Of a stretch of DNA of 64,000 bases, positions 15,466-33,328 are shown one piece after another (the stretch's first letter is position 1; each line of letters starts with the position of its first letter). Source of the stretch: an uncultured Planctomycetia bacterium (GTDB taxonomy: Bacteria > Omnitrophota > Gorgyraeia > 2-01-FULL-45-10); the NCBI GenBank assembly GCA_964450115.1, contig CAYVCD010000001.1, positions 8,410 to 72,409 of the forward strand, written 5' to 3'. Both the position numbers and the translations under genes were made by a program. A model generated the notes under the pieces. That model saw nothing but the letters and a program-made list of their open reading frames with translations. It did no database searches and was not told the origin of the DNA.

Positions 15466-15476
15466 AGGAGCCAAGA

Positions 15477-16061: not shown

Positions 16062-16768
16062 AGAATAAAGCATATGTAATAGCCATAGCCGCGCTGGCGG
16101 CGATCTTAGCGCTGGCATCCATCTTTTTCATACTGCACGCGAATAAATTAAAGAGTCAGATCAGCCAGAATAAGAATGCTATCCGGAACATAGAATCTGA
16201 ACTCTCCCGCGCGCGTGAAGAGAAGGAGAACATAACAAAGGCCAATGAGAAGCTCCAGGCCGATAGCGTATCCTATCTTGCTATAAATTCTAAGCTTGGT
16301 GATGAAAAGGAAGAGCTTAAGACCAGGCTTGATAAAGTCCAGAAGACTATAGATACGAAAGAAGCAAACCTTCAGAGGGTTCAGCAGAGGTTGGATGAGA
16401 TAGAAAAAGCTGCGGCCGCAAATAAGAAGGCCGAGGATGAAAAGCTGGCAAAAGATAAGAAGGTGCTGGAAAAGAAAGTTTTAAAGACCGCCTCGGCTAT
16501 AAAGAAAGAGAGGGGCGTTTATCATTACAATCTTGGCGTAGCGTACGCGCAGGCAAAGTTCTACGGCGAAGCGATCGAAGAATATGAAAAATCTATCAAG
16601 TTTGCCCCCGAAAACGCCGATACCTATTATAACCTCGGCGTATTATATGAAACCGTAGAGGCTGATACCGAAAAGGCTATAGCTAATTACAGGAGATACC
16701 TTGAGCTTAATCCAGCGCCAGAAGATATTGATGAGATCCGAGAGCGGATAAAGAGATTGGGCGGCTAG
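16058..16768 (+). CDS. membrane-anchored coiled-coil / TPR protein
   Basis: N-terminal TM, long coiled-coil, C-terminal TPR (YHYNLGVAYAQAKFYGEAIEEYEKSIKFAPENADTYYNLGVLYE). Confidence 0.5.
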   Translation: MKNKAYVIAIAALAAILALASIFFILHANKLKSQISQNKNAIRNIESELSRAREEKENITKANEKLQADSVSYLAINSKLGDEKEELKTRLDKVQKTIDTKEANLQRVQQRLDEIEKAAAANKKAEDEKLAKDKKVLEKKVLKTASAIKKERGVYHYNLGVAYAQAKFYGEAIEEYEKSIKFAPENADTYYNLGVLYETVEADTEKAIANYRRYLELNPAPEDIDEIRERIKRLGG

Positions 16769-17373: not shown

Positions 17374-18372
17374 ATGTCTAGAGTGCCACGCATATACATA
17401 GAAAATGCGGTATGTTACATCACCTCCAGAGGTGACCATGAAGGAGCTATATTTAAGGAGGATGGTGACTACAAGGCTTATATGGAGTTATTGAAAAAGA
17501 CAAAAGATCAGTTTAAATTTAAGCTCTTTGCGTTTTGTCTGCTTCCGAATCATGCGCATCTGCTCATTGAGCCTGATGAAGAGAGCACAATATCGCAGAC
17601 GATGCATGGGTTAAGCTCAAATTACACGAAGTATTTTAATGGCAAATATAAGAGTAGCGGACATCTTTTTCAGGAAAGATACAAGATGGCTCTCGTAGAA
17701 AAAGATCCCAATATCGCTAATATGACCGCATATATTAACCTGAATCCAAAAGCCGTGGGAGTCACCTCAGAACCAAAGAGTTATCAGTATTCAAGTTATC
17801 CGTCTTACCTATATTATGGCGGGAGTAAGGGAAGTTTAATTGGCATTCCGGTAATATCGATCGAGAAAGAAGTGCGGGAGGTGTCGACGCACCTTAACGG
17901 AAGAAGATACGAAGATTATGTTAATAGTATATCATCGGAAGTCCTGCAGAATATCGGTAAGGAATTATCCAAAAAACCTATCATAGGATCAGATGAATTC
18001 GTTACAAGAGTAAAGTCAAAGATAGAGAGCGAAAAGCTAAAAGCTGAAACAGAAAAAGCTGGGGCCGGCGCGGTGGCCAGGAACAGTAAGAGATTTATCA
18101 TTGTCTCCGGAATCGTTATCGCTGTATTGGGACTATTGACTTTTTACCTATATTCAAGAACCATTTCTTTTAAGAGCACTCTTAAGAACAGGGAAGTAGA
18201 GCTCAGGCTGGGAGCGGTAAAGGCCAGGGGAGAGATAAAGAAAGATTTGAATGAAAGGTACCATGCTGACATGGTCTCTTATGAAGCGATGACAAAGAGA
18301 CTTGAGATAGAGAAGAAGAGGGCGGTGGAGTTGGAAAATAAATTGAAAGCTGAAGGCGCCCCAAAGATCTGA
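17374..18372 (+). CDS. RAYT/IS200-like Y1 (HUH) transposase domain fused to a C-terminal membrane-anchored coiled-coil region
   Basis: N-terminal ~140 aa match COG1943/RAYT: YHxxxRG (CYITSRGDHEGAIF), HUH motif LPNHAHLLIEP, catalytic Tyr context AYINLNPKAVGV. C-terminal TM (FIIVSGIVIAVLGLLTFYLY) plus a coiled-coil. GGAG RBS. Confidence 0.6.
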   Translation: MSRVPRIYIENAVCYITSRGDHEGAIFKEDGDYKAYMELLKKTKDQFKFKLFAFCLLPNHAHLLIEPDEESTISQTMHGLSSNYTKYFNGKYKSSGHLFQERYKMALVEKDPNIANMTAYINLNPKAVGVTSEPKSYQYSSYPSYLYYGGSKGSLIGIPVISIEKEVREVSTHLNGRRYEDYVNSISSEVLQNIGKELSKKPIIGSDEFVTRVKSKIESEKLKAETEKAGAGAVARNSKRFIIVSGIVIAVLGLLTFYLYSRTISFKSTLKNREVELRLGAVKARGEIKKDLNERYHADMVSYEAMTKRLEIEKKRAVELENKLKAEGAPKI

Positions 18373-18382
18373 ACGAAAGAAG

Positions 18383-21300
18383 ATGATCTATATGAAAAGC
18401 TTAAAAGGTAATGCTATAGTATCGGGGTGTTTTAAACTCGCGTTTATCGCATTCCTTATGACAGGCCTATGGACCAGCACTACCGCGAGCAACCCGGATT
18501 ACTACGAGTGGACGCAGAACAACTGGAACAGCAGCGCCAATCCGGCAGCGCAGGGTTCCCACCCCGGTAGCCAGACCGGCTGGACCAATTATTTTAGTAA
18601 AGACACGCCCCTTGGCATAGATACTTCCAGCGGCAAGGTGAAGCTAGCAACACTACCGTATACAATTACGAATACGACGCCAACCGATTTTAATTCCACT
18701 GAATTTCAGAATATAGAAAAAGTGAGCGATGGAAATGGAGCGTTGAGGCTCTTACCTACTATTAATGACCCCTTTGCAAATAATGAACTTCGTAAATGGA
18801 GAGCGCTTCCGAGCACTCCTTATTTTAATGCCAATACCAGATTTACGCGTATGGGTGATTATATATACTCCATATTCGTCTCCGGAGACGGCAAGCAGTT
18901 TGGCCGTATAAAAGTAAGCGACATATCGGATCCTGCCATTCTTCCAAAATGGCAATTTTTGACTTCTCTGCCCGTTCCATTAGGCGCCGGCGCGGCGATA
19001 ACCAACGATGGCCAGTATATATTCGTCCTGCGCGGCGGTGGTTCCAACGCGGCTTATTTTTATCTGCCTCCGGAAGGAACTAACCCCGGAACTAATCCAT
19101 TCACCACGGCTGACAATCCAATAACTTTACCTGTGGCAGGAAGCGAGGATCCCGTTCTTGCATGGCCTAAATTCTCTAGTTTGTCTGAAGGTGCCCAGAA
19201 AGGATCGTCGGTGATTCATGTTGGTACGATAGCCGATCGTTTCGCAAAAGTGGCGGATAGAGGACAGTTGTATGCTGTGTCAGGTGGCAATAGAACGGGT
19301 TTTTTTTACTACGACACATTTAACAAGGAATGGAGAAGGTTCACTAATCCGTCAAGAGCGGCTGTGAATGTTGGAGCCACGCTTATCCATAGAGGCGGCG
19401 ATTCTGTTTATCTGGTATTTGGAGACGGCTATAATGGCCGTATAGATAGATTTAGCAGAAGTTCTGGGACATGGTCTAATGCCTCCAGTAATACGTTTTT
19501 TCCCAAAGATCCGAATTTAATTTCTTTTCCGACTCTATGGGAAGGCTCTGTCTGCTCGTATCCCGGCTCAGGAGATTACGTATATGCGGCATTCTGTTAT
19601 TATACCTATATGCAGCCCTATAGATCGGGCGCCAATCACACGCTCCGGGGATTTTTTAGGTTCGGGCCGCTATCCGACCCAAATCCTACCTGGCAAAGAC
19701 TTGATGATGCGCCTGCCTGGATAGAGACTACTGCTTCGATCATCTATGACCCCGGTGCAGGAACAGGCGCTGAAGGAAATAAGTTGCATCTCTTTTCCGG
19801 TAGGAATTATACCCGGCCCTGGGTATACAAAACAGATAATCCGGACCCCTCTCAAAACCATTGGGAAACAATGTCTATGCCCTTAACTTATACAACCAAC
19901 AGCTCGATGGTCTACGTAAAAGCGGATACTTATACGGGAAATAAGGATTATATGTATATGGTCGTCAGAAACACATGGTTTCTCCGCTACGATGTTGCAG
20001 CGAATAAGTGGGATCTACTGGCATATCTACCAGAGACTGCCGGAGATCATCCCGGTAATCGCCTTACCTACTTGAATGGATATATTTATTACCTGGCGGG
20101 AAATAACAGTGCTGATCCGCTAGATGGATATAAGAGCGGATTTTACAGATATAGGGTATCTCAGACGTTGAATGGAAGCGACTCATGGGATCCAAAAACC
20201 GTCCTTCCGCAATTCCCAAGAGTGGATTTAAATACGAGCGATGCCATATTTAATAATGTAAATGCAGGCTCGGGCATTATAGGCATATCGCAGGGCGGTA
20301 GGAATTTTATATACGGCATCAGAAGTTCATCAAGCAGCTATTTTTATGCGATGGAAATTGGTGCCGACAATGCTCCCGTAGGAGGCTGGATTACCATGCC
20401 CAGCACAAGGGATAAATATAACAATTTAACCACTTTTAATACAACAAATTTGGTATACCCGGGTTATCCGGAAGACGGCGGTCAGCATACCTACATATAT
20501 GCCATCACGTACTTCAATACCGTAAGTGTCAGAAGCGGTTATTGTATATATAAGTATGGACCTATCGAACACGACACTGATACGGATCCCTCTACCGCCG
20601 CGCAATGGACCGAACTTTCGGCTACCTATCCTCACGATGTTACCACCGGACATAACATGTCCATCGCGTATCCTGGCACAGGCCAATATCTATACACAAC
20701 TACCGGTACATCAGATACATCGCTTGGCAGGTATAACATGCCTACAGGTGAATGGACCAAGCTCGATACTGTAGTACCCGTTGCCTATGAATATTACAGC
20801 CATGCTGTCGGAGGCAATAACAGCGTATACTTAACGACATATTATTCACAAAATAGTTTTTACCGTTATGATGTGACTTCGGGAAGGTGGGATGATCTGC
20901 CGATGGATCAGGGCGGTTTCTATTTCGAGGCCGGCAATGCGGTCAAGGACTCAAATAACAATGTATATTTTGTGGGGGGTAGGTCAGGTGATAATATATC
21001 CTCACATCTCTGGATATACAGTACTTCGCTAAAGAAGTGGGTTGGGCTTATGCGGGCGCCATTTCATTTGTCCAGAGGGACTAAAGCCGAATATTTGAGT
21101 GGTAAGGACAACTCTATAAATTCAATCTATGTAACAGAGGGTAGGCAGTCGAATCGGTTCTGCAAGTATAATATCACAAATGACGCTTGGAGTTTTTGCA
21201 AGCCTATTAAAACGGCTGTTACTACCGGCAGCCAGATAACTACCGATGGTATAAGCAAGATATACTTTGTGGCCGGAGGTGATGCTATCGGTAAGACAGT

Positions 21301-24300
21301 ATGGATCTACAATGCGCTTCAGGATGATGGCCAGGCGGATCCCTGGGGTGAGTTTCGCGAAAGCCTTAAGTTGCCATTTGCCTCTACCGTCACCGCGGAC
21401 TTGATGGAATATGCTCAAGGTAATCTATATTTAGTGGCGCAAAACAGTAACACCTTCTATAAGTATCAAGTTGACGGTCAGTTGTCAGGGTGGGACTCAA
21501 CAAGCCTTAGGCCTGTAGGCGATTCCGGCTCAGGAAGCACCATAGTGCCGAGCGGCGGAATATGCCTTTATTATCCCGGCGCGGGATCAAAGCTATACTG
21601 TATACCAAGAGATGGATTTAGCGATTTTCTATCCTATGATATAGGTACCGACCTATGGAGCCCTTTAAAAGAGATGCCCTGGATACCATCTGCCGGAGTG
21701 TCGGCTATAATTGACGCCGGCGAAAGTTGGGTCTATACGTATAACTCAGCCTGGCGCGACATTCTGATACGGTATGATAAGACCGATAATATTTGGGACG
21801 CCATACCTTCCATGCCCGCTGCGCTAAAAGGGAACTCTGCGTTATGTGCATACAAAGGATATGTATATATTCTTAACGGAGGCGCCGGAGACGGTTCCTT
21901 TTCCCGCTATAATACAGAAGGAGAGGTATGGGAACAGCTTCAGTCACCCTATTCTGCAAACTCATCGTTCACATTTCCGAACCAGGGTATATTTGCGCTT
22001 CCGGTAGAAAATCCTTATGATGGAAAAGCGTATATATATTTTACAGAGGGGTATGGCCTCAGCCGGTTTTTCAGATATAGTATAAACGACAACACATGGC
22101 AGACAGTGACAGCTCCGCCCGGAGGAACGACTTGGAAATACGGCAACAGTATGACTCAGGTGGGAAATTACCTCTATATTGTTGATGGCAATGGTACGAA
22201 TTTTTGGAAGTATCGTCTTGATGACTTCTACGACATGTCGTTTTCTGTTCCTCTTCCCGAGTCCGTAGGCAGGGGCGCCAGCGTCGCCTATAGCAGCTAC
22301 GATGGCCGCGTCTATTTCTTCTCCGGCGCCAGATTCTCTTATTTTTATAAATGGCTGCCGGGCGCAACGGGATGGACCCCATTAGCGAGCTGCCCCGTGT
22401 CGGTCAATGACAGCCAATCTAACCTGCTTTATCCCGGATTTGGAAAGTACCTCTATTACATACAAGGCTCATCATATGGGTATAGCGACCCTTCATCCGT
22501 TTTCCTTAGGTATAGTATGGACCCGACGACACCGGCCTCGGACAGATGGACCGAGCTTACTCCCTCTTCTTTCGGCATATATGTGCCGGGCACATTGCTT
22601 TATGCGGGAGGTCAAAATTTTTATGTTGCAAAAGGATATGATAGCGTTTTCTTGAGCAAATATTCCGCATTCTGCTTCGGTGATTATGTTTCTAAGCCGA
22701 TAGAAGTGGGAAGGCATTGCAAATGGGGCACGATAAGCTGGGATAGCATAGGGAGCGGATCGGTGGGAGTGAGCGCAAGAACAGGTAGCAAACTGCTTAA
22801 CGCTAATCTTACCGATGCTCTTGACTGGGGGCAAGTCACGAGCGTTGGAAACGGACAGAATCTATCCGATCCTTCAAGGCCGTTATCAAGCATCAAAGAC
22901 ACAGATAAATATATACAATATCGGGTAGATTTTTCCACGGATGAAACTGGCGTTGGGGTGATAATGCCTCGACTGGATGAGATAAGGATAAATTGGGAGA
23001 AATATGCCTCAGAAAAGACCCTCGTCTCGTCGCCATACAACACAGGGTGGGATAAAAACAGATTAAGAAAATTGATGTGGAATAATGCGGGCGCTCTTAT
23101 GAATCCTACAGGCAGCGAAATACGTTTTCAACTGCGTACATCAGCAAATGGCAGTGCGTGGAGCGACTGGCTGGGACCGCTCGGTACAAGGATGTCAACC
23201 TACGCCTTAAGCGATGATAGCTTATACGTGCGCTCCGGAGACATAAAGCAGCTTAATGCATCCGATAGCTGCGCCTCTCTTTATTATGAATTGGAGAATT
23301 TCAACTTCTGGCAGGATGTCGCCATAAGCAATAATGGACCCAGCAGCATAGCGGCGGGTCAGGTAGCTCTGATAGACATAAACAGTTCCGCGACGCATTT
23401 TTGGAATAATGTAGCTTCATCTGGCCAGGATATTAGATTTTTTGACGGAACGAACAAGATGTCATATTTTCTGGCAAAGTTTGATAATCAAAGTGATATC
23501 GCGCAGATAGCCGTAAAACTAAATAGTGCCATAGCGCCAGGCGCTACCATGCATGTATATATGTTTTACGGAAACGCTAGGGCGTTCTCTGAAAGTAACG
23601 ATATAATCAGAAATCTTACTGCTATTAAAACCGATCCGAGCATAAGTAATATAGGATGGTGGGATTGCGACCAGAGGATGGTCGCCTCATCGGCCTATTA
23701 CACTCCTGACTCATCAGGCATGGGCACTCGACTATATATGAGAAAGAACATTGTGGTCAAGTCTGGTGAGGGTGTGTCCGGCGGTAATGCATTTTATATG
23801 GATGGCGCAAGCGGTTACATGACAACATATCGGGTATCGAGTTCTTTCAGCTATAAAGGGCTAGACAGGACATTCTCTCTATGGATAAAGCCGGAAGTGG
23901 ATCCCTCCGGATCGTGCTTACTATCCAGCTATCCCATCAATGGATACAATTACAGGATACAGTTAAATTCGGCCAGGGAGATGACTATCTATATTTCAAA
24001 TTCAACACCCGGCACGGCATTTAAAGACTTTTCAGTAAAAGCCAATGCAAAAATTCCGGCAGATAGTAGTTGGCATAATATAGTATGGGTCTTGAAAGGC
24101 AAAAATGGAGCAATAACAGGAGCTGTCAATAACGGTGCCGGCAAGGTTCGATATACCACTTCTTCCCCCCACAGCTTAACGCCTTTTACGCCTATTTCTG
24201 TATTCGCAATGGGCGAGCCAACTTATAATACGCTGCAAACAATAACAAGCGTTCCGGATGCAACGCATTTTGATACCGCTATTGACTATGTTGCCAATGC

Positions 24301-27300
24301 AGATGTAACCGGCACTTATTGCGCCGGGGGAACGACATCTCTCTATTTAGACGGCACCCTTGTCGGCGGGCCATTTACGCACTATATTACAGATTGGAGT
24401 TATGTCGACACTTCTTTCCCCAGTGGCACTAACTATATATTCGGTAGCTATACGGACTATGATAATTCTGACAGAAGCTGGCTCTACAAGGGGTATGTCG
24501 ATAATCTATCATTTTATAATTATGCCTTTGACGAAACGTTGGCAAAATGTATGTATGCCGGAGCAAATCGAAATCTGGCCACCGTATTTTCCGGCGGTTA
24601 TACAGACAATACGGGCGCGAATCTTAAGAATACCGGAAAATTTTATACTACCAATCCCACCATAGAGCCTATTTACGGCGTCTTCTATAATTACGGTGAT
24701 GGCGATACGCTGGCGTCGTTTGTGCAGGATCCCAGCGTAAATGCACTCGGCACGAGCATAAAGTACCAAGTTTCTCCGGACGGATATAACTGGTATTGGT
24801 GGGATAGTACAGCACCTGCCGGCGGAGCCTGGGTTATTGCTTCGGGAGGGACATCACAGGCAAACGTCTATACCGAGATAAATGCTAATCTCTCGACGTT
24901 CAGGAACATAAATCTTCCCACCGGAGTTTCTGCCGCATCGGGCGATTTTTACTGGCGCGCTTATCTTATGTCCACAGACGGCGGCACGAGCAATCCTCAG
25001 CTTAGGAATGTAACGATCAACGTTACGAATGGCGCCAGCTCCTACTATACCGATCCGGCGGGCTTAAAAAATATAAATATTGAGAACGAGAATTGCGTTG
25101 CGGACAGGTGGATACAGTACAAGGCTATTCTCTATTCGGATGGGGAAAATACCCCCACACTCAACGACGTTGTATTGAGGTACATCGAGCCGTATATTAC
25201 AATAGGATCGCCCTCTGGCGGTGAAACATGGGTAGCCGCCACTACAGAAAATATAACATGGACGTCCCATGGCCTCGAGGCTACAAAAGCGGCCCCTGCC
25301 ACTCACGGAGTTCAGCTTAAATATTCTATCGATAACGGGGTCAGCTGGGTAAGCCCCGCCATCACCAATGATGCTCCCAATAGTAATACTCTCCCATGGA
25401 ATATACCATTTGATCCGTCTCCGCAGGCTCGCGTCAGCATCGCTTCCAGCGATTACCCTGTAATAACCGCCACGTCTCCGGGCTCTTTCAGAATATTGGG
25501 TATTATACTTAATCTACCCAATGGCGGGGAGATATGGGAGAGAGGGTCTCTGCATTCTATTGAATACAGAACGTCAGGTTATGGGAGCCCAAGCACCAAA
25601 TTAAAATTACAACTATCAAATGACGGCGGGCTCAGCTATAACACTACCCTGGCGCAGGAACAGACCGACGCGCCGCCATGGCAGATCCCATGGAGAATCA
25701 ATCAGTCCGCATCAGACAACATTAAGCTTAGAATATACGATGCAAATCCTGTTTTCTGCACACCATCGATAAGGATAGTTGATGAAAGTAACAGCTTATT
25801 CAGCATAGTAGAACCTCCCAAAATAATAATAGACAGAGTGATGAAGGTTCCGGAGGAGGAAGTTATCGACGGAAAGATGATAGCAGGAAAAAGATATAGA
25901 ATAGAATGGCATACCACATCACAACACTTCGCCGAAAATTTTATACTCGAGTACTCCAAGGACAATTTTGCGACACCCGGCATTTCTATTGGCACGGCCG
26001 CATCCGGCGTGTCGGGCGGAGTATTTCCTGCTCCCGCATCGCAACTTCAGTGCAATTATGTATGGCTGGTAATTCCCTATGACATAGCGGATATCAAATT
26101 AAAGATAAGAGAAGATCCTGCTACTGTGCCGTCTCAGAGAGACACACCGGCCCCGCAAGAAGCGACAATAGCTTTGAGTATTATAGAGCCGTATTTTACT
26201 ATTGTAAGGCCCAATGCAGGCGAAATATTTGTCAGTGGTGACAAAGAAAAAATTACTTGGACCACGACTGGTAGTGTCACAGGGCCGTTTAAACTTGAAT
26301 ATTGCACAGATTATAACGAAGTCGATCCGGGCGCATCCAGCTGGATGACTATTGAGACAAATACTGCATATCCATACTTGCCCGGAAGCATACCGCCCGA
26401 TGTGCGTGAATATATATGGCCGGTACCTATTGTCACGCAGGACAAAGAAAATTGTCGCATCAGGATCACTGATATCAGTACTAATACGATAACTGATATG
26501 TCTGATGTCAGCTTTAAGATTATTTCGCATGAAAAGATAGCTATAACGACTCCTGATGGAGGCGAAGAATGGGTTATGGGAGTGCCTTACAATATAACAT
26601 GGGGTGCAAACGGCCAGAGCGTTCTTAGTAAACAGTCACCTGTCTATGTTTATCTGTATTATTCCACAGATGATGGGAAGACATACAATGAAATACCGGA
26701 GATCGGTCCACAGGTTGCATGGAAAGAGTCGTGCGAATGGACACCGGAATTACCCGTTTCTACTACGAAAGCTAAAATAAAAATAGAGGCTCTTGATTTG
26801 AATGCTCATCCGTATCTTGTGGATGCGTCTGAGGGAGTCTTCAGTATAAAAGATCCCAGCATAAGCCGCATATGGTTGGAGCATGACGGAACAGAGGTAG
26901 CGTCGGCTTATGCTACCGGTAATTACGATATAAGATGGGAGAGCTATGGCGCTGTAAGCAATAATATTAAGATTGAGTATAGGCTCAATGGCGCCGCATG
27001 GCAAACATTAACAGCATCTACGACAACACAGGAAGGCAGCGCCAGGCTAAAGCCGTGGGAGATCCCTAAGTCCGACGGAGCGCTGCTGGAATTTAAAATG
27101 ACAGATAATAACAGGGCGTCTGTTGTAAAAATATCGGACGTATTCAGCATAACAAAACCTGTTATTAACATAACTGCGCCTGCCGCTGATTTCCCATGGG
27201 TAGTAGGATTATCCGGTACGGTGAGCTGGACCACTCAAGGTGGGGATTTCCAGGCCATCAAAAGATTAAAAGTGCAGTGCATTGCCGATGCCACCCATAC

Positions 27301-30300
27301 TTACGATATAGGCGAGATCACTACGGGATTAGAAGCTAACGCAGGCAGCTTTGATTGGACGCTGCCGGCAAATGCGCCATTGTCGACCGCCGTGAATAAG
27401 GCAACTATAAAGATATTCGATCCGGATCCAAGCGGAAGCGGCGTTACCGCTACGCTGCAGTTCAATATAAAGGAGCCTTCGCTGATAGTAGATGTGCCTA
27501 CTCAAGCCGATTCATGGAGGATCGGAAGCCAGAATAAGACTATCTCCTGGCATCGCCTCGGCATGGTCACCTATCCTATACATATATACTGCAGGACGCA
27601 GGACGGCGCGGAACACCTCCTGGCGGACATAGGCGATACCAACGTATCTGCATCATGGAACTGGACGAGCGTGGATTTCCCGGGAATCATTCCCGGAACC
27701 TCTTACATTGTAATACGGGATTCGACCGTGCCGGTGCCGATCGTTACAAAATTTGATACGGAAAGAAACGGACTATTTACGATAGAAGCGCCGAGGATAA
27801 AGATACTGGGTCCCGGCGATCCTAAAAAAATAGATAATAGCACCGATAATCCTAATTACGGGCAACAGTGGACTACCACGGATAGCAGGGGCGTTGAATG
27901 GGAATGCGACGGCATGATGGACGGACCGCTATTTAAAGTCGAATGGTCCAGAAGCGTCGGGGAGACGGTGGCGGCAAGCGGTACCATAGCAGAAGGCATT
28001 AATTCCGAGTCGCGTCTTGCGCTTTGGAGTGATATCCCTCAGGAGGCGGTCGGTCCGAATGTGCGGTTAAAGATCACGAACACAGGCTCCGCCTATGGAA
28101 CGTTCGCTCAGTCCGCGCCGTTTACGGTATTTCCAGTGCCGGAATTTTTAACCCTTACAGCGCTTGATCCTGTTACGGACGCGTCTACTAATACGGTACG
28201 AATAGGAAATACCTATAAAGTGAAATGGACGCGTAATGTTGCCGCATTCAGCAATGCGCTGGAGCTATCATTTGCCCTTACCGGAAGCCCGGCAATGTCG
28301 GATTGGCGGCCCATAACAGAAACTCCTGTGGCAAGGGACCTGGAATATTATACGTGGACCATTCCTCATACGGATATGATGCCTTATGCGGGCGCAAAAC
28401 TCAGAATATATGATACCGCATCATGGAAAAGCTCTTCCGCGGCGCACACAGAAAAAATAGTATCAGTGGATATAGGTCGTCCGGTCTTTAATAATATCAA
28501 ACTGCTAAAGCCGGGTAGCGCGCAGGCCGTAAACTGCATTGCCCTGGCGGAGGTTGCGGATATCAGGTGGGGTTGGGATGGATATATCAGCGAAGACAAC
28601 AACTCCGTTTCGATAAAGCTGATAGAAGACCTTAATGACAACGGAAAGATAGATATTAACGAATACAGTGCGCAGATAGGGACCTCTTCCAACACAGGCA
28701 GTTATAACGGTTGGATAGTGCCGGTGAATGCGCCTGCAACAAATAAAGCCAGGATAGTGCTGCAGGACATCTTCGCAAATTACGGACTAGGGAATGAGGT
28801 TATTGATGCGTCCGAGAAGTTTACTATTATTAACCAGCCCGAGATAACGCTTGTCACTCCCAATGGCGGGCAGGACTATATTATAGGAACAGACAAGATA
28901 AGCTTTGAGTGGACTTCCAGGGGAATATCCGTAGATGAGGTCAAGATAGAGCTGTCTTCGGATGATTTTAACCCTGCTTCGACTCCATACTTGGTAACAG
29001 ATGCCGCTCATCCCGATGGCAAATTCCCCAATACGGGAGAATTGCGCGATTGGTTAATACAGCAGGATTCCGCCGCGGGCAGTCATGTAAAGGCCCGCAT
29101 AAGCATGGTCGGCAGAGAGTCTGAGATATTCGATGTTTCAAATAACTCTTTCCGTATAAGAAGCGGATTTATAGTAAAGACTCCGGCTTTGAATGAGAAA
29201 TGGGCAACTAATGAAATTAAAGATATTACATGGGACACAAAAGGCGCGATACAAAAAGTGAGCTTGTTCTATAGTATCGATAATGGGATGAATTTTAACC
29301 CTATTCCCGGGGCCAAGAACATAGATAATACCGGATCATTCTCATGGAGAGTGCCTAACGAGAGAACGGATATCAACGTTACAAAGGCCCAGATAATGGT
29401 CAAAGATGCCGGCGATACGGAAGGCATAATACAGAATAAGTCCGAACCTTTCGATATAATCTGGTACAAGATCAAGTTCTATATAATCGATAAGGACACC
29501 TACAGCCCCATAGGAAATCTGATAGTGAGGAGCAAGGATGATACCGCGCTGTACTATCCGGGATGGAACGTTCCCATTGATTTGGTGAGCGCGCAGGAAA
29601 ATGACTATCTTTCGTCTCCCATAAGCTATGAATTCCCCGCCGGTACATTTGTCGTTACCTGGTCTACGAGGCCGGATGCTTCCGGGAAATCGCCGTATTT
29701 CGACAGAGGCGTAGAGGTCAAATCGAATGTTGAAAATTCGAGAAAGGGCATCCTTGTTGAACTGGAAAGCGTCATCTCTGCTCAGATAGAATGGCACGTT
29801 ATTCTTACAAACTCCTATGTTGCCCAAAGCGATACGTTAAGCGCGACTGCCTGGATAGAGCGCCGGGGAAAATTGCAGGAGCCTATACCTATGGATACCT
29901 CAGAACCGCCGGACGGCATACCGGATACGCTTGATAAGAGTAATTTTAAGTCCTGCGAACTGAAGGTATACGACTATGATACCGATACCAACACGCCTCT
30001 CAAAGTCTTTACCGACGTTCTTCCGGACGATAAGGGATTGTATAAATTTGTCTGGAACCCTACGGGCCTCCAGGAGGGTAAGACATATTTTGTCAGGGCT
30101 ACTATAACATATGGCGTCAGCAGCACTCCTTACACATCGGGAGGCACTTTCGACATAAGCGTGACAAAGGCGCAGTCGCAGATGATAACAGAGCATGCCG
30201 AACAGAAGACGCTTTTGGAGACTATAACCGGGCAGGCTGCCGTTATACAGACGGCCGTTACGACTACCATCCCGCAAAAGATAGACGAAGCAACAAGCAT

Positions 30301-31135
30301 AATAGGATCAAAAATAGATACATCCACAAACGCGATAAAAACAGAGACGAGCGCGATAAAAGCTGAGACAGCCAAAATTTTAACGGCGACTGAAAGCACT
30401 ATTCCGACGCAGATCAGGGAGACGGTGGAGCCATCTCTAAGATCAGAGATCCTTAACAGGGAGAGCACGATGCGGCTCGGCAGTAAGCTTATGGTACGGT
30501 ATCGTACTTACCCGGGCCTCGAACCGGTTATTACTGTTTACGATCCGCGTAATAAGCTAAAGATCTCCCAATCCCCGATGAAAGAGGTTGCCGGTTCGTC
30601 GGGTATATATGAGCATGAGGTATTTCTTGCAAACGGGTGGACCGTGGGCGATTATACGATCGTTTGTTCAGAGTCCAGTAAGGGGACGATGGATGCATTG
30701 ATCATATCCGCGATAAGGACCGATCTTGAGGATATATCGGGGCAGGTATCCAGCATACTTGGCACGACCACGAGCCTAGCCAACCTTAAAGATGTCGCCG
30801 ATACGTTGAACAGCCAGTTCAGCATCATCGAATCGGCGCTTGGCAAGATAAGCACCGACCTCGTGAATAAGGTCAAAGAGGTTGCCTCAAGCGCCACCGA
30901 TATAGAATCCGTATATGGACAGCTCGTCAAGATAGGCAAGGAGCTGAAGACTCTCGGAGCCAGTCAGGATGTGAACCTGAGTAAGCTGCTAGAGGTCTCT
31001 AAAGAGAAGAGCCAGGATATGAAGTACCTGAAGAATAAGACGCAGCAGCTGAAGGCCGCTATGGAATTGAATAACAAGATGGTCGAGAACATGGCTCACA
31101 AGCCTGTAACCCAGACATGGTTCGAATATAAATAA
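18383..31135 (+). CDS. giant (4250 aa) secreted/surface protein: signal peptide, more than 20 Kelch-like beta-propeller blades, LamG/ConA-like domain, at least 10 tandem Ig-like ~100-aa repeats, Thr/Ser-rich coiled-coil C-terminal region
   Basis: Uninterrupted 12.75-kb ORF. N-terminal hydrophobic signal. Recurrent blade motifs (YIFVLRGG, YVYILNGG, IYFVAGGD, LYIVDGN…). LamG-like segment (FSLWIKPEVDPSGSCLL…WHNIVWVLKG). Repeats with an ITWT..G signature. C-terminal AIKTETSAIKAETAKIL heptads. Confidence 0.8.
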   Translation: MIYMKSLKGNAIVSGCFKLAFIAFLMTGLWTSTTASNPDYYEWTQNNWNSSANPAAQGSHPGSQTGWTNYFSKDTPLGIDTSSGKVKLATLPYTITNTTPTDFNSTEFQNIEKVSDGNGALRLLPTINDPFANNELRKWRALPSTPYFNANTRFTRMGDYIYSIFVSGDGKQFGRIKVSDISDPAILPKWQFLTSLPVPLGAGAAITNDGQYIFVLRGGGSNAAYFYLPPEGTNPGTNPFTTADNPITLPVAGSEDPVLAWPKFSSLSEGAQKGSSVIHVGTIADRFAKVADRGQLYAVSGGNRTGFFYYDTFNKEWRRFTNPSRAAVNVGATLIHRGGDSVYLVFGDGYNGRIDRFSRSSGTWSNASSNTFFPKDPNLISFPTLWEGSVCSYPGSGDYVYAAFCYYTYMQPYRSGANHTLRGFFRFGPLSDPNPTWQRLDDAPAWIETTASIIYDPGAGTGAEGNKLHLFSGRNYTRPWVYKTDNPDPSQNHWETMSMPLTYTTNSSMVYVKADTYTGNKDYMYMVVRNTWFLRYDVAANKWDLLAYLPETAGDHPGNRLTYLNGYIYYLAGNNSADPLDGYKSGFYRYRVSQTLNGSDSWDPKTVLPQFPRVDLNTSDAIFNNVNAGSGIIGISQGGRNFIYGIRSSSSSYFYAMEIGADNAPVGGWITMPSTRDKYNNLTTFNTTNLVYPGYPEDGGQHTYIYAITYFNTVSVRSGYCIYKYGPIEHDTDTDPSTAAQWTELSATYPHDVTTGHNMSIAYPGTGQYLYTTTGTSDTSLGRYNMPTGEWTKLDTVVPVAYEYYSHAVGGNNSVYLTTYYSQNSFYRYDVTSGRWDDLPMDQGGFYFEAGNAVKDSNNNVYFVGGRSGDNISSHLWIYSTSLKKWVGLMRAPFHLSRGTKAEYLSGKDNSINSIYVTEGRQSNRFCKYNITNDAWSFCKPIKTAVTTGSQITTDGISKIYFVAGGDAIGKTVWIYNALQDDGQADPWGEFRESLKLPFASTVTADLMEYAQGNLYLVAQNSNTFYKYQVDGQLSGWDSTSLRPVGDSGSGSTIVPSGGICLYYPGAGSKLYCIPRDGFSDFLSYDIGTDLWSPLKEMPWIPSAGVSAIIDAGESWVYTYNSAWRDILIRYDKTDNIWDAIPSMPAALKGNSALCAYKGYVYILNGGAGDGSFSRYNTEGEVWEQLQSPYSANSSFTFPNQGIFALPVENPYDGKAYIYFTEGYGLSRFFRYSINDNTWQTVTAPPGGTTWKYGNSMTQVGNYLYIVDGNGTNFWKYRLDDFYDMSFSVPLPESVGRGASVAYSSYDGRVYFFSGARFSYFYKWLPGATGWTPLASCPVSVNDSQSNLLYPGFGKYLYYIQGSSYGYSDPSSVFLRYSMDPTTPASDRWTELTPSSFGIYVPGTLLYAGGQNFYVAKGYDSVFLSKYSAFCFGDYVSKPIEVGRHCKWGTISWDSIGSGSVGVSARTGSKLLNANLTDALDWGQVTSVGNGQNLSDPSRPLSSIKDTDKYIQYRVDFSTDETGVGVIMPRLDEIRINWEKYASEKTLVSSPYNTGWDKNRLRKLMWNNAGALMNPTGSEIRFQLRTSANGSAWSDWLGPLGTRMSTYALSDDSLYVRSGDIKQLNASDSCASLYYELENFNFWQDVAISNNGPSSIAAGQVALIDINSSATHFWNNVASSGQDIRFFDGTNKMSYFLAKFDNQSDIAQIAVKLNSAIAPGATMHVYMFYGNARAFSESNDIIRNLTAIKTDPSISNIGWWDCDQRMVASSAYYTPDSSGMGTRLYMRKNIVVKSGEGVSGGNAFYMDGASGYMTTYRVSSSFSYKGLDRTFSLWIKPEVDPSGSCLLSSYPINGYNYRIQLNSAREMTIYISNSTPGTAFKDFSVKANAKIPADSSWHNIVWVLKGKNGAITGAVNNGAGKVRYTTSSPHSLTPFTPISVFAMGEPTYNTLQTITSVPDATHFDTAIDYVANADVTGTYCAGGTTSLYLDGTLVGGPFTHYITDWSYVDTSFPSGTNYIFGSYTDYDNSDRSWLYKGYVDNLSFYNYAFDETLAKCMYAGANRNLATVFSGGYTDNTGANLKNTGKFYTTNPTIEPIYGVFYNYGDGDTLASFVQDPSVNALGTSIKYQVSPDGYNWYWWDSTAPAGGAWVIASGGTSQANVYTEINANLSTFRNINLPTGVSAASGDFYWRAYLMSTDGGTSNPQLRNVTINVTNGASSYYTDPAGLKNINIENENCVADRWIQYKAILYSDGENTPTLNDVVLRYIEPYITIGSPSGGETWVAATTENITWTSHGLEATKAAPATHGVQLKYSIDNGVSWVSPAITNDAPNSNTLPWNIPFDPSPQARVSIASSDYPVITATSPGSFRILGIILNLPNGGEIWERGSLHSIEYRTSGYGSPSTKLKLQLSNDGGLSYNTTLAQEQTDAPPWQIPWRINQSASDNIKLRIYDANPVFCTPSIRIVDESNSLFSIVEPPKIIIDRVMKVPEEEVIDGKMIAGKRYRIEWHTTSQHFAENFILEYSKDNFATPGISIGTAASGVSGGVFPAPASQLQCNYVWLVIPYDIADIKLKIREDPATVPSQRDTPAPQEATIALSIIEPYFTIVRPNAGEIFVSGDKEKITWTTTGSVTGPFKLEYCTDYNEVDPGASSWMTIETNTAYPYLPGSIPPDVREYIWPVPIVTQDKENCRIRITDISTNTITDMSDVSFKIISHEKIAITTPDGGEEWVMGVPYNITWGANGQSVLSKQSPVYVYLYYSTDDGKTYNEIPEIGPQVAWKESCEWTPELPVSTTKAKIKIEALDLNAHPYLVDASEGVFSIKDPSISRIWLEHDGTEVASAYATGNYDIRWESYGAVSNNIKIEYRLNGAAWQTLTASTTTQEGSARLKPWEIPKSDGALLEFKMTDNNRASVVKISDVFSITKPVINITAPAADFPWVVGLSGTVSWTTQGGDFQAIKRLKVQCIADATHTYDIGEITTGLEANAGSFDWTLPANAPLSTAVNKATIKIFDPDPSGSGVTATLQFNIKEPSLIVDVPTQADSWRIGSQNKTISWHRLGMVTYPIHIYCRTQDGAEHLLADIGDTNVSASWNWTSVDFPGIIPGTSYIVIRDSTVPVPIVTKFDTERNGLFTIEAPRIKILGPGDPKKIDNSTDNPNYGQQWTTTDSRGVEWECDGMMDGPLFKVEWSRSVGETVAASGTIAEGINSESRLALWSDIPQEAVGPNVRLKITNTGSAYGTFAQSAPFTVFPVPEFLTLTALDPVTDASTNTVRIGNTYKVKWTRNVAAFSNALELSFALTGSPAMSDWRPITETPVARDLEYYTWTIPHTDMMPYAGAKLRIYDTASWKSSSAAHTEKIVSVDIGRPVFNNIKLLKPGSAQAVNCIALAEVADIRWGWDGYISEDNNSVSIKLIEDLNDNGKIDINEYSAQIGTSSNTGSYNGWIVPVNAPATNKARIVLQDIFANYGLGNEVIDASEKFTIINQPEITLVTPNGGQDYIIGTDKISFEWTSRGISVDEVKIELSSDDFNPASTPYLVTDAAHPDGKFPNTGELRDWLIQQDSAAGSHVKARISMVGRESEIFDVSNNSFRIRSGFIVKTPALNEKWATNEIKDITWDTKGAIQKVSLFYSIDNGMNFNPIPGAKNIDNTGSFSWRVPNERTDINVTKAQIMVKDAGDTEGIIQNKSEPFDIIWYKIKFYIIDKDTYSPIGNLIVRSKDDTALYYPGWNVPIDLVSAQENDYLSSPISYEFPAGTFVVTWSTRPDASGKSPYFDRGVEVKSNVENSRKGILVELESVISAQIEWHVILTNSYVAQSDTLSATAWIERRGKLQEPIPMDTSEPPDGIPDTLDKSNFKSCELKVYDYDTDTNTPLKVFTDVLPDDKGLYKFVWNPTGLQEGKTYFVRATITYGVSSTPYTSGGTFDISVTKAQSQMITEHAEQKTLLETITGQAAVIQTAVTTTIPQKIDEATSIIGSKIDTSTNAIKTETSAIKAETAKILTATESTIPTQIRETVEPSLRSEILNRESTMRLGSKLMVRYRTYPGLEPVITVYDPRNKLKISQSPMKEVAGSSGIYEHEVFLANGWTVGDYTIVCSESSKGTMDALIISAIRTDLEDISGQVSSILGTTTSLANLKDVADTLNSQFSIIESALGKISTDLVNKVKEVASSATDIESVYGQLVKIGKELKTLGASQDVNLSKLLEVSKEKSQDMKYLKNKTQQLKAAMELNNKMVENMAHKPVTQTWFEYK

Positions 31136-31154: not shown

Positions 31155-31949
31155 ATGAGGAAGATATTCTGTCTCGCTATTTTTATGATAGCATTATCGA
31201 TCTTTGTTTCCAATTCCTATGCCGGAATAGTCCTGAAAGTCCTTGCCGCAAATCCATCTAAAACGGAAAAACAATCGGTCATTGTGAAAGCGTACTTGCC
31301 TAAAGAGGTGAAGCCCGAAGATGTTGTGGATAAGGGTGACCTCGAGATAGCGTATGACAATCAGCAGGGTTCTTACTATGTATATGGAGAATATAGCCTC
31401 GACCCGGGCCAGAGCATAGACCGAGATGTGGAGATGCACGATATATGGCAGGTGCCCGCCACAGAGATGGAGTCGATAAGGGCCGAAGCCGAAAAGACCT
31501 CAAAGTTACTGGAGAATACCGATTTCCGGGATAGGATGAGTTTCCTGAAGCAGAGTATAGACGCCAAATTGAAAGAGATAGAGGGTAGGCAGAGTATTCC
31601 GGCGGTGAACCCTGAGCGCCATATATCTAACTACCGCGATAACGTGAAGCTGTTAGAATCGGTGAAATCCGATCTTGTAGTATTAAGGAGCCTGCTGGCC
31701 CAGGCAAAAGGATTGCCGGCGACCGCGGTATGGCGCCTCATATTGATAATAATCAGTTTTCTCGGGGTTATCGGCGCGGGCTCATATATCATATGGCAGA
31801 GGCAGATGAAGCTGGTGGAGATACCGGCGGCAAAAGCCTTAAAGAAGGAAGAAGACGATAAGCAGGATGCTAGCAAAAAGGTCGAGTCCAAAGATGATGA
31901 TCTCGAAGCGGCGGAAAACATAGAGAAGCTGCTGCGAGGGGATAAATAG
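31155..31949 (+). CDS. signal-peptide protein with a coiled-coil, a C-terminal TM anchor and an acidic tail
   Basis: SP MRKIFCLAIFMIALSIFVSNSYA. TM AVWRLILIIISFLGVIGAGSYIIW. GGGAG RBS. Function unknown. Confidence 0.5.
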   Translation: MRKIFCLAIFMIALSIFVSNSYAGIVLKVLAANPSKTEKQSVIVKAYLPKEVKPEDVVDKGDLEIAYDNQQGSYYVYGEYSLDPGQSIDRDVEMHDIWQVPATEMESIRAEAEKTSKLLENTDFRDRMSFLKQSIDAKLKEIEGRQSIPAVNPERHISNYRDNVKLLESVKSDLVVLRSLLAQAKGLPATAVWRLILIIISFLGVIGAGSYIIWQRQMKLVEIPAAKALKKEEDDKQDASKKVESKDDDLEAAENIEKLLRGDK

Positions 31950-31960
31950 TGAGACGATCT

Positions 31961-32043
31961 CTCATTCCCGAATGTTTTTATCGGGAATCCAAACAAGATA
32001 AAATTCTTGTTATAGATTCCCGCTTTCGCGGGAATGACATATT
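31961..32043. repeat. REP-like palindromic doublet (ATTCCCGA-atgttttta-TCGGGAAT and ATTCCCGC-TTTC-GCGGGAAT-gaca, inverted)
   Basis: Same hairpin family as 971–1039 and 2714–2741. Lies in the gap and overlaps the GTG-31949 N-terminal extension of the next ORF. Confidence 0.55.
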
Positions 32044-32056
32044 CGATCTTTTTTTT

Positions 32057-32851
32057 ATGTTGAAATGCCGCGCAATCGCCATTGTCCTCGCAATGACGAT
32101 TTTTATTTTATACTCATCTACGGCCGCTAACGCCGCTACGCTCGAAGAGTCTTTTTGGGATTCCAAACAGAGCACCCATTTTACCGTATATTACAAGAGC
32201 ACAGAATCGAATGACTATGTGAACGAGGTTCTGCGGTACGCTGAAAAGTACTATGACAATATCACCGAGGAGCTCGGTTTCAGGCGATTTGACTTCTGGA
32301 CATGGGAGAAGGCCTGCAAGATATACCTGTATGCTACGGCAAAGGAGTATTATGACTCTACCGGCCAGCCCGAGTGGTCAGGAGCGACCGCTTACTTAAA
32401 AGAGCGCACCATAAGGACATTCATCCGCAGGGAGATGTTTCTGGATACTATATTGCCGCATGAGATGGCGCACCTCATATTCAGGGAGTTCGTGGGATAT
32501 AAAGTGCCGCTGCCTCTATGGCTGGACGAAGGCGTCTCCTCACTTATGGAGAATAATAAGAGGAAGGAGTATCTCTTTCTGGCGAAGTCGCTCGCGAAGT
32601 CTCAGATATTCATACCGCTTCCCAAGCTCACAAGGATAGTCAGGGAAGGGCTGGTGATGCCCGGAGTATTCTATGCCGAATCGGCCAGCGTTATAGAGTT
32701 CCTATTACAGAAATACGGCAGGGAAAAATTTGTTGATTATTGCAGAAGGTTAAGGGATAATAAGAACTGGGAGTTGTCTCTCAAAGAAGCGTATAAGTTC
32801 AAGGATCTTTCCGAGATGAATGATAAGTGGCTGGAGTTCCTTTTACAATAA
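32057..32851 (+). CDS. secreted HExxH metallopeptidase-like protein (peptidase MA-like domain)
   Basis: Start ATG 32057 gives a signal peptide MLKCRAIAIVLAMTIFILYSSTAANA. Zinc motif LPHEMAHLIF…WLDEG (HExxH plus a downstream Glu). Confidence 0.55.
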   Translation: MLKCRAIAIVLAMTIFILYSSTAANAATLEESFWDSKQSTHFTVYYKSTESNDYVNEVLRYAEKYYDNITEELGFRRFDFWTWEKACKIYLYATAKEYYDSTGQPEWSGATAYLKERTIRTFIRREMFLDTILPHEMAHLIFREFVGYKVPLPLWLDEGVSSLMENNKRKEYLFLAKSLAKSQIFIPLPKLTRIVREGLVMPGVFYAESASVIEFLLQKYGREKFVDYCRRLRDNKNWELSLKEAYKFKDLSEMNDKWLEFLLQ

Positions 32852-33091
32852 ATGAAAGTATATATAAATACCGTTTTTGAGGAAGTCTACTCCGGAGATG
32901 CGAAAGAGGTGGTTCTCCCCGGCGACGAGGGAGAGCTGTCTTTAATGAATTTTCACCAACCTATCGTCTGCCGCCTCGCAAAAGGTACAGTCAGGATAAT
33001 CTTACCCCAAGGCGTCAAATCGATCCCCATAACAGACGGAATAGCGCACATGGAAGGCGATACGTTAAAGATAATGGCGGAGGTGGCTTAA
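32852..33091 (+). CDS. atpC: F-type ATPase epsilon subunit, truncated (beta-sandwich domain only, 79 aa)
   Basis: MKVYINTVFEEVYSGDAKEVVLPGDEGELSLMNFHQPIVCRLAKG… matches the epsilon N-terminal domain. No C-terminal helical hairpin. Confidence 0.65.
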   Translation: MKVYINTVFEEVYSGDAKEVVLPGDEGELSLMNFHQPIVCRLAKGTVRIILPQGVKSIPITDGIAHMEGDTLKIMAEVA

Positions 33092-33093
33092 GA

Positions 33094-33306
33094 ATGCTGC
33101 GTAACCTTACTATCATAATAATAATGTTCCTGAGTACATTCGGGCCCGCTGTGGTCATCGCTCTCGTCGGCTCTTCGGCTGTAAAGGCGGTGGGCAGGAA
33201 CCCCTCAGCTTCCGCCAGGATACTGTCCGCTATGATAATAGCGTTCATATTCGCGGAGGCGATAGCGGTGCTGGCGATCCTCATGGTATTTAATATATTC
33301 AAGTAA
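33094..33306 (+). CDS. atpE: F-type ATPase subunit c
   Basis: 70-aa two-helix proteolipid with the ion-binding carboxylate in IIAFIFAEAIAVLAIL. Confidence 0.8.
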   Translation: MLRNLTIIIIMFLSTFGPAVVIALVGSSAVKAVGRNPSASARILSAMIIAFIFAEAIAVLAILMVFNIFK

Positions 33307-33328
33307 CGTAAAGAAGGGGCCTTATATT

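Follow-up and report, generated by a model that had tools for sequence, protein, structure and literature searches.

A giant Omnitrophota protein with a propeller and lectin head, a 13-domain rod and a conserved C-terminal module: a probable cell-tethered adhesin encoded within a type II secretion-like locus

The window analyzed here is a stretch of 64,000 nucleotides (NCBI GenBank assembly GCA_964450115.1, contig CAYVCD010000001.1, positions 8,410 to 72,409), and our subject is the giant open reading frame (ORF) that it carries at positions 18383..31135. All coordinates refer to the window unless another locus is named, and the genes described below between 9896 and 44906 lie on the + strand. 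The ORF starts with an ATG and runs for 4250 codons with no internal stop, so that the 12.75-kb uninterrupted frame described in a sequence-only reading of this DNA proved to be exact. The encoded protein of 4250 amino acids (aa) is composed of a signal peptide, a region of Kelch-like blades, a DUF2341 and lectin cassette, 13 immunoglobulin (Ig)/Fn3-like repeats and a C-terminal module; a partner gene follows immediately, and the genes are packed in an operon-like manner within a cluster of the type II secretion system (T2SS)/type IV pilus (T4P) type. Sequence comparisons indicate that the protein belongs to a large family that is found only in Omnitrophota and whose members are typically 4.0-5.7 thousand aa long, and they point to a source bacterium of this phylum closely related to a metagenome-assembled genome (MAG) from Lac Pavin. 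We consider that the protein is probably a non-enzymatic, Sec-exported, cell-tethered, glycan-binding fibre adhesin that is exported by the adjacent T2SS-like machine.

The reality of the ORF was examined at the levels of DNA, protein and assembly. Stop codons make up 5.2% of the codons in the remaining five frames across 18383..31135, and the probability of 4250 open codons occurring by chance is approximately 10^-99. The GC content of the gene (0.46-0.48) matches that of its flanks. Because there was neither a DNA-level tandem repeat within the gene nor an off-diagonal match in a self-BLASTP comparison of the protein, a repeat-driven misassembly is unlikely; the second of these results also implies that the internal repeats diverged long ago and would not cause an assembly to collapse. 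In the public collections, an identical protein is encoded on a 78-kb NCBI contig (P0041), and an independent ENA assembly (P0162, a 64.7-kb contig) encodes a protein that is likewise 4250 aa long, with 4248 identical residues and 2 differences. Chimeric misassembly, which had been named at the outset as a finding that would overturn the ORF, is excluded for practical purposes. Short-read MAG contigs often end within the giant family gene (as in the related loci L007 and L001), and one relative (L002) appears to be divided by insertions, which might suggest an assembly artefact or a decaying pseudogene. However, two independent assemblies agree on 4250 aa, colinearity extends to more than 15 full-length relatives, and stops and DNA repeats are lacking; this explanation is extremely unlikely.

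The N-terminus of the protein carries the signal peptide that had been predicted (aa 1-35; 18383..18487). A Kyte-Doolittle scan identified a single hydrophobic segment in the whole protein, aa 11-29, which is preceded by the lysines of a basic n-region and followed by TTA↓S, while all other segments gave values of 1.31 or lower. In full-length relatives, classic AxA-type sites stand directly ahead of the conserved start F-x-Q-T-D-W-S-G-G of the mature region, which reads YYEWTQNNWNS in the window protein. The N-terminus is thus best read as a cleavable Sec signal and not as a membrane anchor, and the protein possesses the Sec/Tat signal peptide that is characteristic of T2SS substrates. The conserved N-terminal region that follows (aa 36-130; 18488..18772) has no Pfam match and is 29-36% identical to 6 full-length relatives. 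Scans with Pfam, NCBIfam, motifs and hydrophobicity detected no C-terminal LPXTG, PEP-CTERM, T9SS or autotransporter signal in the giant protein, in agreement with the absence of an LPXTG, T9SS or autotransporter C-terminus noted previously. Its single LPxT[GASN] match is internal (aa 549), and there is no hydrophobic C-terminal segment. Por_Secre_tail, autotransporter families and TIGR04183 were not matched in Pfam/NCBIfam, RTX/HemolysinCabind and the S-layer homology (SLH) domain were not matched in Pfam, and NCBIfam as a whole returned nothing for this protein. Anchoring through LPXTG, type IX secretion (T9SS), autotransporter or type I secretion (T1SS) routes was rejected because the respective signals are absent. 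Similarly, a T1SS RTX giant adhesin of the LapA/SiiE type was rejected on the basis of the Sec-type N-terminus, the lack of an RTX match and the T2SS/T4P-type neighbours.

The domains of the protein were searched with Pfam on the whole length and on tiles, with gathering scores as cut-offs. The Kelch-like beta-propeller region extends over aa ~140-1400 (18800..22582). In the tiles aa 751-1050 and aa 1051-1440, Kelch_6 scored 42.9 and 40.7 bits (cut-off 25.3), with Kelch_4 at 40.0 bits (cut-off 21.6) and Kelch_1 at 27.1 bits (cut-off 20.1). A hidden Markov model (HMM) built from ten hand-picked blades of the window protein found approximately 22 evenly spaced units between aa 200 and 1395, of which 11 were strong (the ten seeds being among them) and about ten were weak; the same model found 6-19 blades in each of 17 other family members. 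The whole-domain propeller models PF24681, PF24981 and PF25210 stayed under their cut-offs on the giant protein. The number of blades is a count by sequence, which would correspond to 3-4 propellers, and it agrees with the more than 20 blades that had been proposed.

Behind the blades lies a conserved domain without a Pfam family (aa 1441-1660; 22703..23362), which is colinear and 29-37% identical in relatives, followed by DUF2341 (PF10102; aa 1681-1739; 23423..23599), which scored 35 bits in its tile and 30.8 bits in the whole-protein scan against a cut-off of 23.4. The ConA/LamG-like domain that had been suspected was confirmed as Laminin_G_3 (PF13385), a ConA-like lectin domain with an insertion (aa ~1808-2050; 23804..24532; 40.1 bits against 27.6). 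The tile scan matched it in two stretches, aa ~1808-1912 and a second one, and it went undetected when the whole 4250-aa protein was scanned. This domain occupies a slot that varies within the family, and BLASTP matched its tile in 2 of 27 family proteins (P0035, P0057); with one [DUF2341-LamG] cassette, the window protein is a minimal variant. A second conserved domain without a Pfam family (aa 2061-2271; 24563..25195) is 33-52% identical in relatives and contains many invariant residues. Sequence searches of the PDB with aa 1-1500 and aa 1501-2271 gave no matches.

It has been hypothesized that the giant proteins of Omnitrophota are secreted enzymes that degrade or modify glycans for predation (10.1101/2023.11.21.568195), and weak sub-threshold matches to NanM and to sialidase lectin or C-terminal domains were seen both in the window protein and in relatives. 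These weak matches, however, concern non-catalytic lectin-type domains, and no glycoside hydrolase, lyase, esterase, peptidase or other catalytic domain reached the threshold anywhere in the 4250 aa in Pfam or NCBIfam. An enzymatic role is thus very unlikely.

The rod of the protein is formed by 13 tandem Ig/Fn3-like beta-sandwich repeats of ~105 aa (aa 2272-3696; 25196..29470), where at least 10 repeats of ~100 aa had been noted before. The repeats are 16-32% identical in pairwise comparisons, with one invariant and one nearly invariant tryptophan; given this divergence and the lack of a DNA repeat, a recent expansion was rejected. The AlphaFold2 model of repeat 1, computed from an alignment of its 12 paralogues, is a 9-strand sandwich (predicted local distance difference test, pLDDT, 79.6; predicted template modelling score 0.72), and the top Foldseek matches of this model were the Fn3-like module of CbhA, a carbohydrate-binding module and Ig domains, with template modelling scores of 0.45-0.52. 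Of the families suggested earlier for HMM searches, Kelch and LamG were recovered as described above, whereas Big and fn3 had no match in the giant protein and Kre9_KNH stayed under its threshold (E=0.9, 10.8 bits against 24.6). Reelin_subrepeat-B was marginal (27.4 against 27, over 24 residues). An Ig/Fn3-like fold class is thus supported for the repeats by the model, without a match to a named Pfam Ig family. The domain classes named in the sequence-only reading were all recovered, the Kelch class at the level of repeat models and the Ig-like fold through the structure model. A count of 13 repeats is kept in 11 of 19 repeat-bearing relatives and in the orthologue of Candidatus Velamenicoccus archaeovorus at 22-40% identity; the recurrence of this number in spite of such divergence argues for selection on the length of the rod.

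The remainder of the protein is the C-terminal module that defines the family (aa 3697-4250; 29471..31132), which was characterized by alignment, a structure model and periodicity tests. Macroglobulin/Ig-like sandwiches come first and are followed by a Thr-rich helix of 88 residues, a conserved sandwich and a heptad coiled coil, before the chain closes with PVTQTWFEYK. The region had been described as a Thr/Ser/Ala-rich heptad segment, and this description held in part. The Thr-rich stretch (aa 3928-4015, 23% Thr) is predicted to be a single long helix, but its heptad periodicity was not significant (31 of 500 shuffles reached the observed value), and a coiled coil there was rejected. In contrast, a clear 3.5-residue hydrophobic periodicity is present in the last ~125 residues (aa 4115-4238; 0 of 500 shuffles). 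Conservation is highest in the last ~250 aa of the protein, its C-terminus is invariant, and in the family alignment the module ends in ANKPVTQTW[FY]E[YF][KR] right at the stop codon. A search of the PDB with a profile of the tail found only a designed coiled coil. Judging from these alignments, the C-terminus is not featureless but marks a phylum-wide family, which goes beyond what had been seen in the sequence before.

The tandem Ig-like sandwiches and the coiled-coil stalk resemble S-layer proteins, and the fold matches include the S-layer glycoproteins 7ptp, 8cka and 8qox. These likenesses, together with the name of Ca. Velamenicoccus, which was given after a coat (PMC10066038), raise the idea that many copies of the protein form a structural coat, the outer 'velamen' of the cell. 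However, Pfam detected no SLH or other S-layer anchoring domain, the fold matches are generic, and the published coat candidate is a different protein of 39,678 aa with 42 transmembrane helices (PMC10066038). The variable number of LamG/DUF2341 cassettes and the propeller head suggest ligand binding instead, and a coat is rather unlikely.

To describe the family, we propose as its criterion a C-terminal module of ~550 aa that ends in P[VI][TV]QTW[FY]E[YF][KR] at the extreme C-terminus. The 'WFEYK-tail' family proposed here is recognized by this terminal module and by a downstream gene of the p264 type, a 264-aa partner described below, and the window protein has both. The terminal motif was present in 60 of 160 retrieved proteins. 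A scan with one genome per species yielded 64 tail loci, essentially all of them in MAGs of Candidatus Omnitrophota (a few being mislabelled), including the Lac Pavin MAG (L007, 96% identity) and the complete genome of Ca. Velamenicoccus archaeovorus LiM (L059). In most of these loci, the reading frame that bears the tail is open for more than 3,700 codons and reaches the edge of the retrieved DNA. A profile search of 1.8 billion representatives recovered many full-length proteins of 4.0-5.7 thousand aa with a signal peptide at one end and the module at the other. Approximately 17 relatives are colinear with the window protein over the full length, in the order N-terminal region, Kelch blades, the domain of aa 1441-1660, DUF2341, a variable slot, the domain of aa 2061-2271, Ig repeats and tail. 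The variable slot spans 250-1430 aa among the relatives, and in ten of them it holds 1 to 4 or more Laminin_G_3 domains, 1-3 DUF2341 domains and, once, TSP3 repeats. A head that varies in the number of LamG and DUF2341 domains and a constant tail form a pattern typical of adhesins. More distant members share the tail alone, with or without Ig repeats, and have unrelated N-terminal parts. In NCBI, one close relative is named 'DUF2341 domain-containing protein' and the others are 'hypothetical'.

Two members of the family depart from this arrangement. In Ca. V. archaeovorus LiM (CP019384; L059 227-11527), the frame of the orthologue starts in the middle of a Kelch blade after a stop, and the gene may extend upstream in another frame or bear a frameshift; the protein has 13 Ig repeats and ends in PVVQTWYEYS. 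At locus L002 (1-11593; JGI Ga0260547_10000219), the family gene seems to be broken into a DUF2341 piece, a 1536-aa Ig piece and a 530-aa tail piece. Between these pieces are inserted a ParE toxin-antitoxin pair and a set resembling a diversity-generating retroelement (a protein of the FGE-sulfatase/C-type-lectin fold, bAvd and a reverse transcriptase).

The gene for p264 (31155..31949, 264 aa) begins 19 nt past the stop codon of the giant gene. In its product, a signal peptide is followed by a conserved beta-rich domain and a helical domain, and a single transmembrane helix (aa ~190-212) precedes the charged tail. Synteny was counted in 50 related loci with at least 6 kb of downstream DNA. 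A p264 gene lies directly 3' of the giant gene in 49 of them, at a median distance of 121 nt between BLAST matches, while an F-type ATPase cluster was found downstream in 37, a peptidase gene in 32 and a MshE/GspE gene in 32. We found 356 homologues of p264, including BU251_08365 of V. archaeovorus, which is the neighbour of the giant orthologue there; they belong to no Pfam family, NCBIfam gave no match for p264 itself, and a profile search of the PDB found no relative. Among the 120 homologues listed, all but one with a JGI name are called 'hypothetical', and they come from MAGs of Omnitrophota or of the PVC group. A dedicated membrane-protein gene downstream of the giant gene had not been recognized in the sequence-only reading.

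Behind p264 lie a Peptidase_MA_2 metallopeptidase gene (31949..32851; 58.8 bits), whose product has an intact HEMAH motif and a hydrophobic N-terminus, and an F-type ATPase cluster (32852..37776) that encodes epsilon, c, a b-delta fusion, alpha, gamma and beta subunits. A gene for the a subunit is absent from the cluster in the window and in the annotated related loci L001 and L002. The alpha and beta subunits pass the NCBIfam cut-offs for canonical atpA/atpD and fail the models of the Mycoplasma gliding ATPase (430 and 438 bits against cut-offs of 600 and 850), and the c subunit retains the RNP loop and the helix-2 Glu. In addition, response-regulator and GGDEF genes are interspersed with the ATPase genes at L001 (4423-5435) and L002 (14564-15442). 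Together with the MshE-type motif of the GspE-like ATPase of the window (37773-39443), they hint at a control of the locus by cyclic di-GMP (c-di-GMP).

This ATPase cluster suggests that the giant protein and p264 might form an ATP-driven 'leg', the surface part of a machine powered by the ATPase in the manner of Gli349/Gli521 in Mycoplasma mobile. The cluster follows the giant, p264 and peptidase genes in 37 of the 50 loci, its reading frames overlap or abut in the window, and the lack of the a subunit combined with this tight linkage keeps the idea alive. According to Seymour et al., the alpha subunit groups with the type 2/3 ATPases of Mycoplasma, and the system may serve motility on the host surface (PMC10066038); the 50-nm legs of M. 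mobile bind sialylated glycans (PMC4937208). Nevertheless, alpha and beta score as canonical and fail the gliding models, the cluster encodes the epsilon, c and b-delta subunits of an ordinary F1Fo enzyme, and the ATPase is missing nearby in 13 of the 50 loci. The ...DIE... motif in the tail of p264 does not covary with ATPase adjacency either, and a link between the two was rejected (4 loci have the motif without the ATPase and 4 the ATPase without the motif). Moreover, the secretins of the locus presumably indicate a diderm cell, in which force would be harder to transmit across two membranes. We regard a driven leg as quite improbable.

The suggestion that the gene lies within a T2SS-like locus was borne out by both flanks. 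Downstream of the ATPase cluster are a GspE/PilB-type ATPase with the MshEN c-di-GMP motif, GspF/PilC, a PilM-PilN fusion that is GspL-like and a weak GspM/PilO-like protein (37773..42683), and then an N_methyl (pseudo)pilin, a ComEA-like HHH_3 protein and a GspG-type major pseudopilin (43025..44906; the last at 44484-44906, T2SSG 110.6 bits). The upstream half (9896..16768) consists of a secretin, an ExeA-like AAA_22 protein, a weak GspC-like protein, a second secretin and three tetratricopeptide repeat (TPR) proteins. From the giant gene to the GspM-like gene, all intergenic gaps are between -17 and +57 nt on one strand, and no terminator-like site was found on the + strand after the giant gene; this spacing indicates operon-like packing. 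Immediately upstream, a Y1_Tnp/REP-tyrosine-transposase-like ORF of 332 aa (17374..18372) ends 10 nt ahead of the giant start codon, and the 605-nt gap in front of that ORF contains a terminator-like hairpin and a good promoter-like site, both of which are consensus matches only. The locus as a whole corresponds to the published 'symbiotic' F-type ATPase/type-4a pilus locus of Omnitrophota (PMC10066038), an identity that the sequence-only reading had not made.

Several details of this locus were noted in passing. The two secretins (9896-11632 and 13365-15104; 578 and 579 aa) are tandem paralogues, both with STN, Secretin_N and Secretin domains, and the ExeA-like ATPase and the weak GspC-like protein sit between them; neither secretin reached the NCBIfam cut-offs for GspD, PilQ or MshL. 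The T2SSG pseudopilin and the PilM-PilN fusion (40724-42160) give a T2SS-like character to what the literature calls a 'type-4a pilus' locus. Homologues of the transposase-like ORF occur in 8 related loci, there downstream of the MA peptidase, and the ORF may be either an element at an insertion hot spot or a domesticated gene.

Pilin genes within the same cluster allow for another reading, in which the giant protein rides the (pseudo)pilus of its own locus as a pilus-associated adhesin, for example at the tip like PilY1, with the invariant C-terminal strand docking to minor pilins. PilY1 itself contains propeller domains. Furthermore, archaeal type IV pilus loci encode DUF2341 proteins that were proposed to be PilY-like tip adhesins (PMC4858521). 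On the other hand, the giant protein has no match to the PilY1/PilC family or to a von Willebrand factor A domain in Pfam and NCBIfam, and only DUF2341 is held in common. Its closest genomic partner, p264, is a bitopic membrane protein and not a pilin, and the search for pilin-like genes recovered just two in the window. The machine genes are also inconstant companions, given that an ATPase is missing from the next 10 kb downstream in 13 of the 50 loci and that MshE/GspE occurs in 32. A pilus-borne adhesin is therefore unlikely.

We thus return to the fibre adhesin, which would also account for the secreted or surface adhesin, or host-interaction protein, proposed in the sequence-only reading. 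The Sec signal, the lectin and propeller domains, the long Ig rod and the lack of a catalytic domain all fit such a role, which is supported by architecture and synteny. Under this model, the protein would cross the inner membrane through Sec and fold in the periplasm, and the surrounding GspD/E/F/G/L/M-like machine would export it by way of one or other of the secretins. The distal end would be the head of propellers and lectin domains, which would bind to a host or prey cell through glycans or other structures on its surface, while the 13 Ig-like domains would serve as a spacer of fixed length, ~50 nm as estimated from typical domain sizes. The C-terminal module may oligomerize through its coiled coil and dock to the single-pass p264, which would hold the fibre on the cell, and the neighbouring exported metallopeptidase may process or release it.

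Several points weigh against this model. First, localisation, secretion, binding and the contact with p264 are all deduced from architecture and synteny, and Kelch propellers and ConA-like domains are also found in enzymes such as sialidases and oxidases. Second, we know of no T2SS substrate of such a size. Third, the C-terminal module could not be matched to a known anchor, and it was modelled with moderate confidence (pLDDT 65, and below 50 in the last 130 residues), the fold matches being generic sandwiches. Fourth, the giant gene and p264 occur as a pair without an ATPase within 10 kb downstream in 13 of the 50 loci, and MshE/GspE accompanies them in just 32, which means that the link to the machine is frequent and not obligatory. 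Finally, the adhesin model leaves the role of the ATPase unexplained. A more speculative and, as it stands, unlikely extension would unite the giant protein, p264 and the a-less ATPase in one envelope-spanning machine: a secretin-threaded fibre whose tail is held in the periplasm by p264 and which is actively moved or released, through the ATPase, the c-di-GMP-sensing GspE and the MA peptidase, to catch, pull or drop hosts. If true, such a machine would be a diderm analogue of the leg/F1-ATPase apparatus of Mycoplasma mobile and would represent a new mode of anchoring for a giant adhesin, combining a secretin plug with an inner-membrane dock.

Beyond the machine genes, the ORFs 46432-50799 (1455 aa) and 51046-53889 (947 aa) encode proteins that have hydrophobic segments at the N-terminus and match no family in Pfam or NCBIfam. 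The interval 54374-60000 encodes ferredoxin-like, hybrid-cluster, flavin reductase, flavodiiron-type, rubrerythrin/ferritin-like and desulfoferrodoxin proteins, an apparent oxidative-stress set of anaerobes that is in keeping with an anaerobic lifestyle.

The Omnitrophota, ultra-small bacteria of wide distribution, are thought to live on or prey upon other cells, and their huge proteins are mostly unannotated. An anonymous 12.75-kb ORF now represents a phylum-wide family that can be recognized by its architecture and diagnosed by its C-terminal motif. The spacer is fixed at 13 domains, the lectin cassette varies and the partner gene is constant, and this family sits inside a locus already suspected to act in host attachment. 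The tail motif is a simple marker for tracing the system in metagenomes, and concrete targets include the orthologue in the sole cultured representative, Ca. V. archaeovorus, for which proteomes exist under PRIDE PXD025008. If the tail and p264 do form an anchor, a new mechanism of surface tethering would be at hand.

The closest published counterpart is that of Seymour et al. (2023), who proposed, in the accessible text of their paper, that 'symbiotic' F-type ATPase/type-4a pilus loci of Omnitrophota serve in attachment to host cells and motility, by analogy with Mycoplasma (PMC10066038). As in those loci, a divergent F-type ATPase cluster abuts T4P/T2SS-type genes here, whereas that text mentions neither a protein of ~4 thousand aa nor p264 nor an MA peptidase in the stretch that separates the secretin half from the ATPase (PMC10066038). 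The class of 'giant ORFs' defined there starts at 20 kb, and the 12.75-kb gene falls under it (PMC10066038). West-Roberts et al. (2023; 10.1101/2023.11.21.568195) and a 2026 preprint (10.64898/2026.06.07.730766) described giant genes of Omnitrophota flanked by T2SS/T4P genes, and the protein analyzed here is likewise a very long, mostly unannotated adhesion-domain protein of this phylum beside secretion/pilus genes. However, their giants exceed 30,000 aa and have many transmembrane regions, SecA-DEAD domains, and rcpC and rotamase genes in the flanking system, while in our protein a single segment is hydrophobic, a SecA domain is missing and the locus is of another kind, linked to an ATPase. 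Assignment to that class was rejected on the length of 4250 aa, the single hydrophobic segment and the lack of a SecA match. Large DUF2341 proteins recur in archaeal type IV pilus loci as proposed adhesins (Makarova et al. 2016, PMC4858521), and Patescibacteria encode DUF2341 proteins of more than 4000 aa (PMC11809585). Both resemble the giant protein in having DUF2341 within a very large protein, and the archaeal ones also in lying beside T4P-type machinery; they belong to other phyla, the C-terminal module and p264 are not reported for them, and it is by these descriptions that they are set apart. In the accessible text of these papers, we found no description of the 4-5-thousand-aa family, its tail or p264, although the supplements may differ.

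In outline only, the system is also reminiscent of LapA/LapG/LapD, in which ligand-binding domains are likewise combined with an extended rod of Ig-like domains, one end tethers the protein to the cell and a periplasmic protease is a neighbour. LapA carries an RTX signal at its C-terminus and a retention module at its N-terminus, is secreted by a T1SS and is released by LapG/LapD, LapG being a cysteine protease. The giant protein differs in having a Sec signal and in lacking RTX repeats, and an MA-clan metalloprotease stands in the place of LapG; a c-di-GMP input through the MshEN motif of the GspE-like ATPase is plausible. The legs of Mycoplasma mobile, which are ~50 nm long and bind glycans (PMC4937208), offer a further comparison, because Gli349/Gli521 are multi-thousand-residue surface proteins associated with an F1-type ATPase (PMC4937208, PMC8406192), which here is a gene neighbour. 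In contrast to M. mobile, the ATPase scores as canonical atpA/atpD, epsilon, c and b-delta are kept, and secretins presumably indicate an outer membrane; no sequence kinship with Gli349/Gli521 has emerged. The type of locus and the giant adhesin-like ORFs of Omnitrophota have thus already been published, and what is added here is the definition of the family, its partner gene, the 13-domain spacer and the hypothesis of its anchoring.

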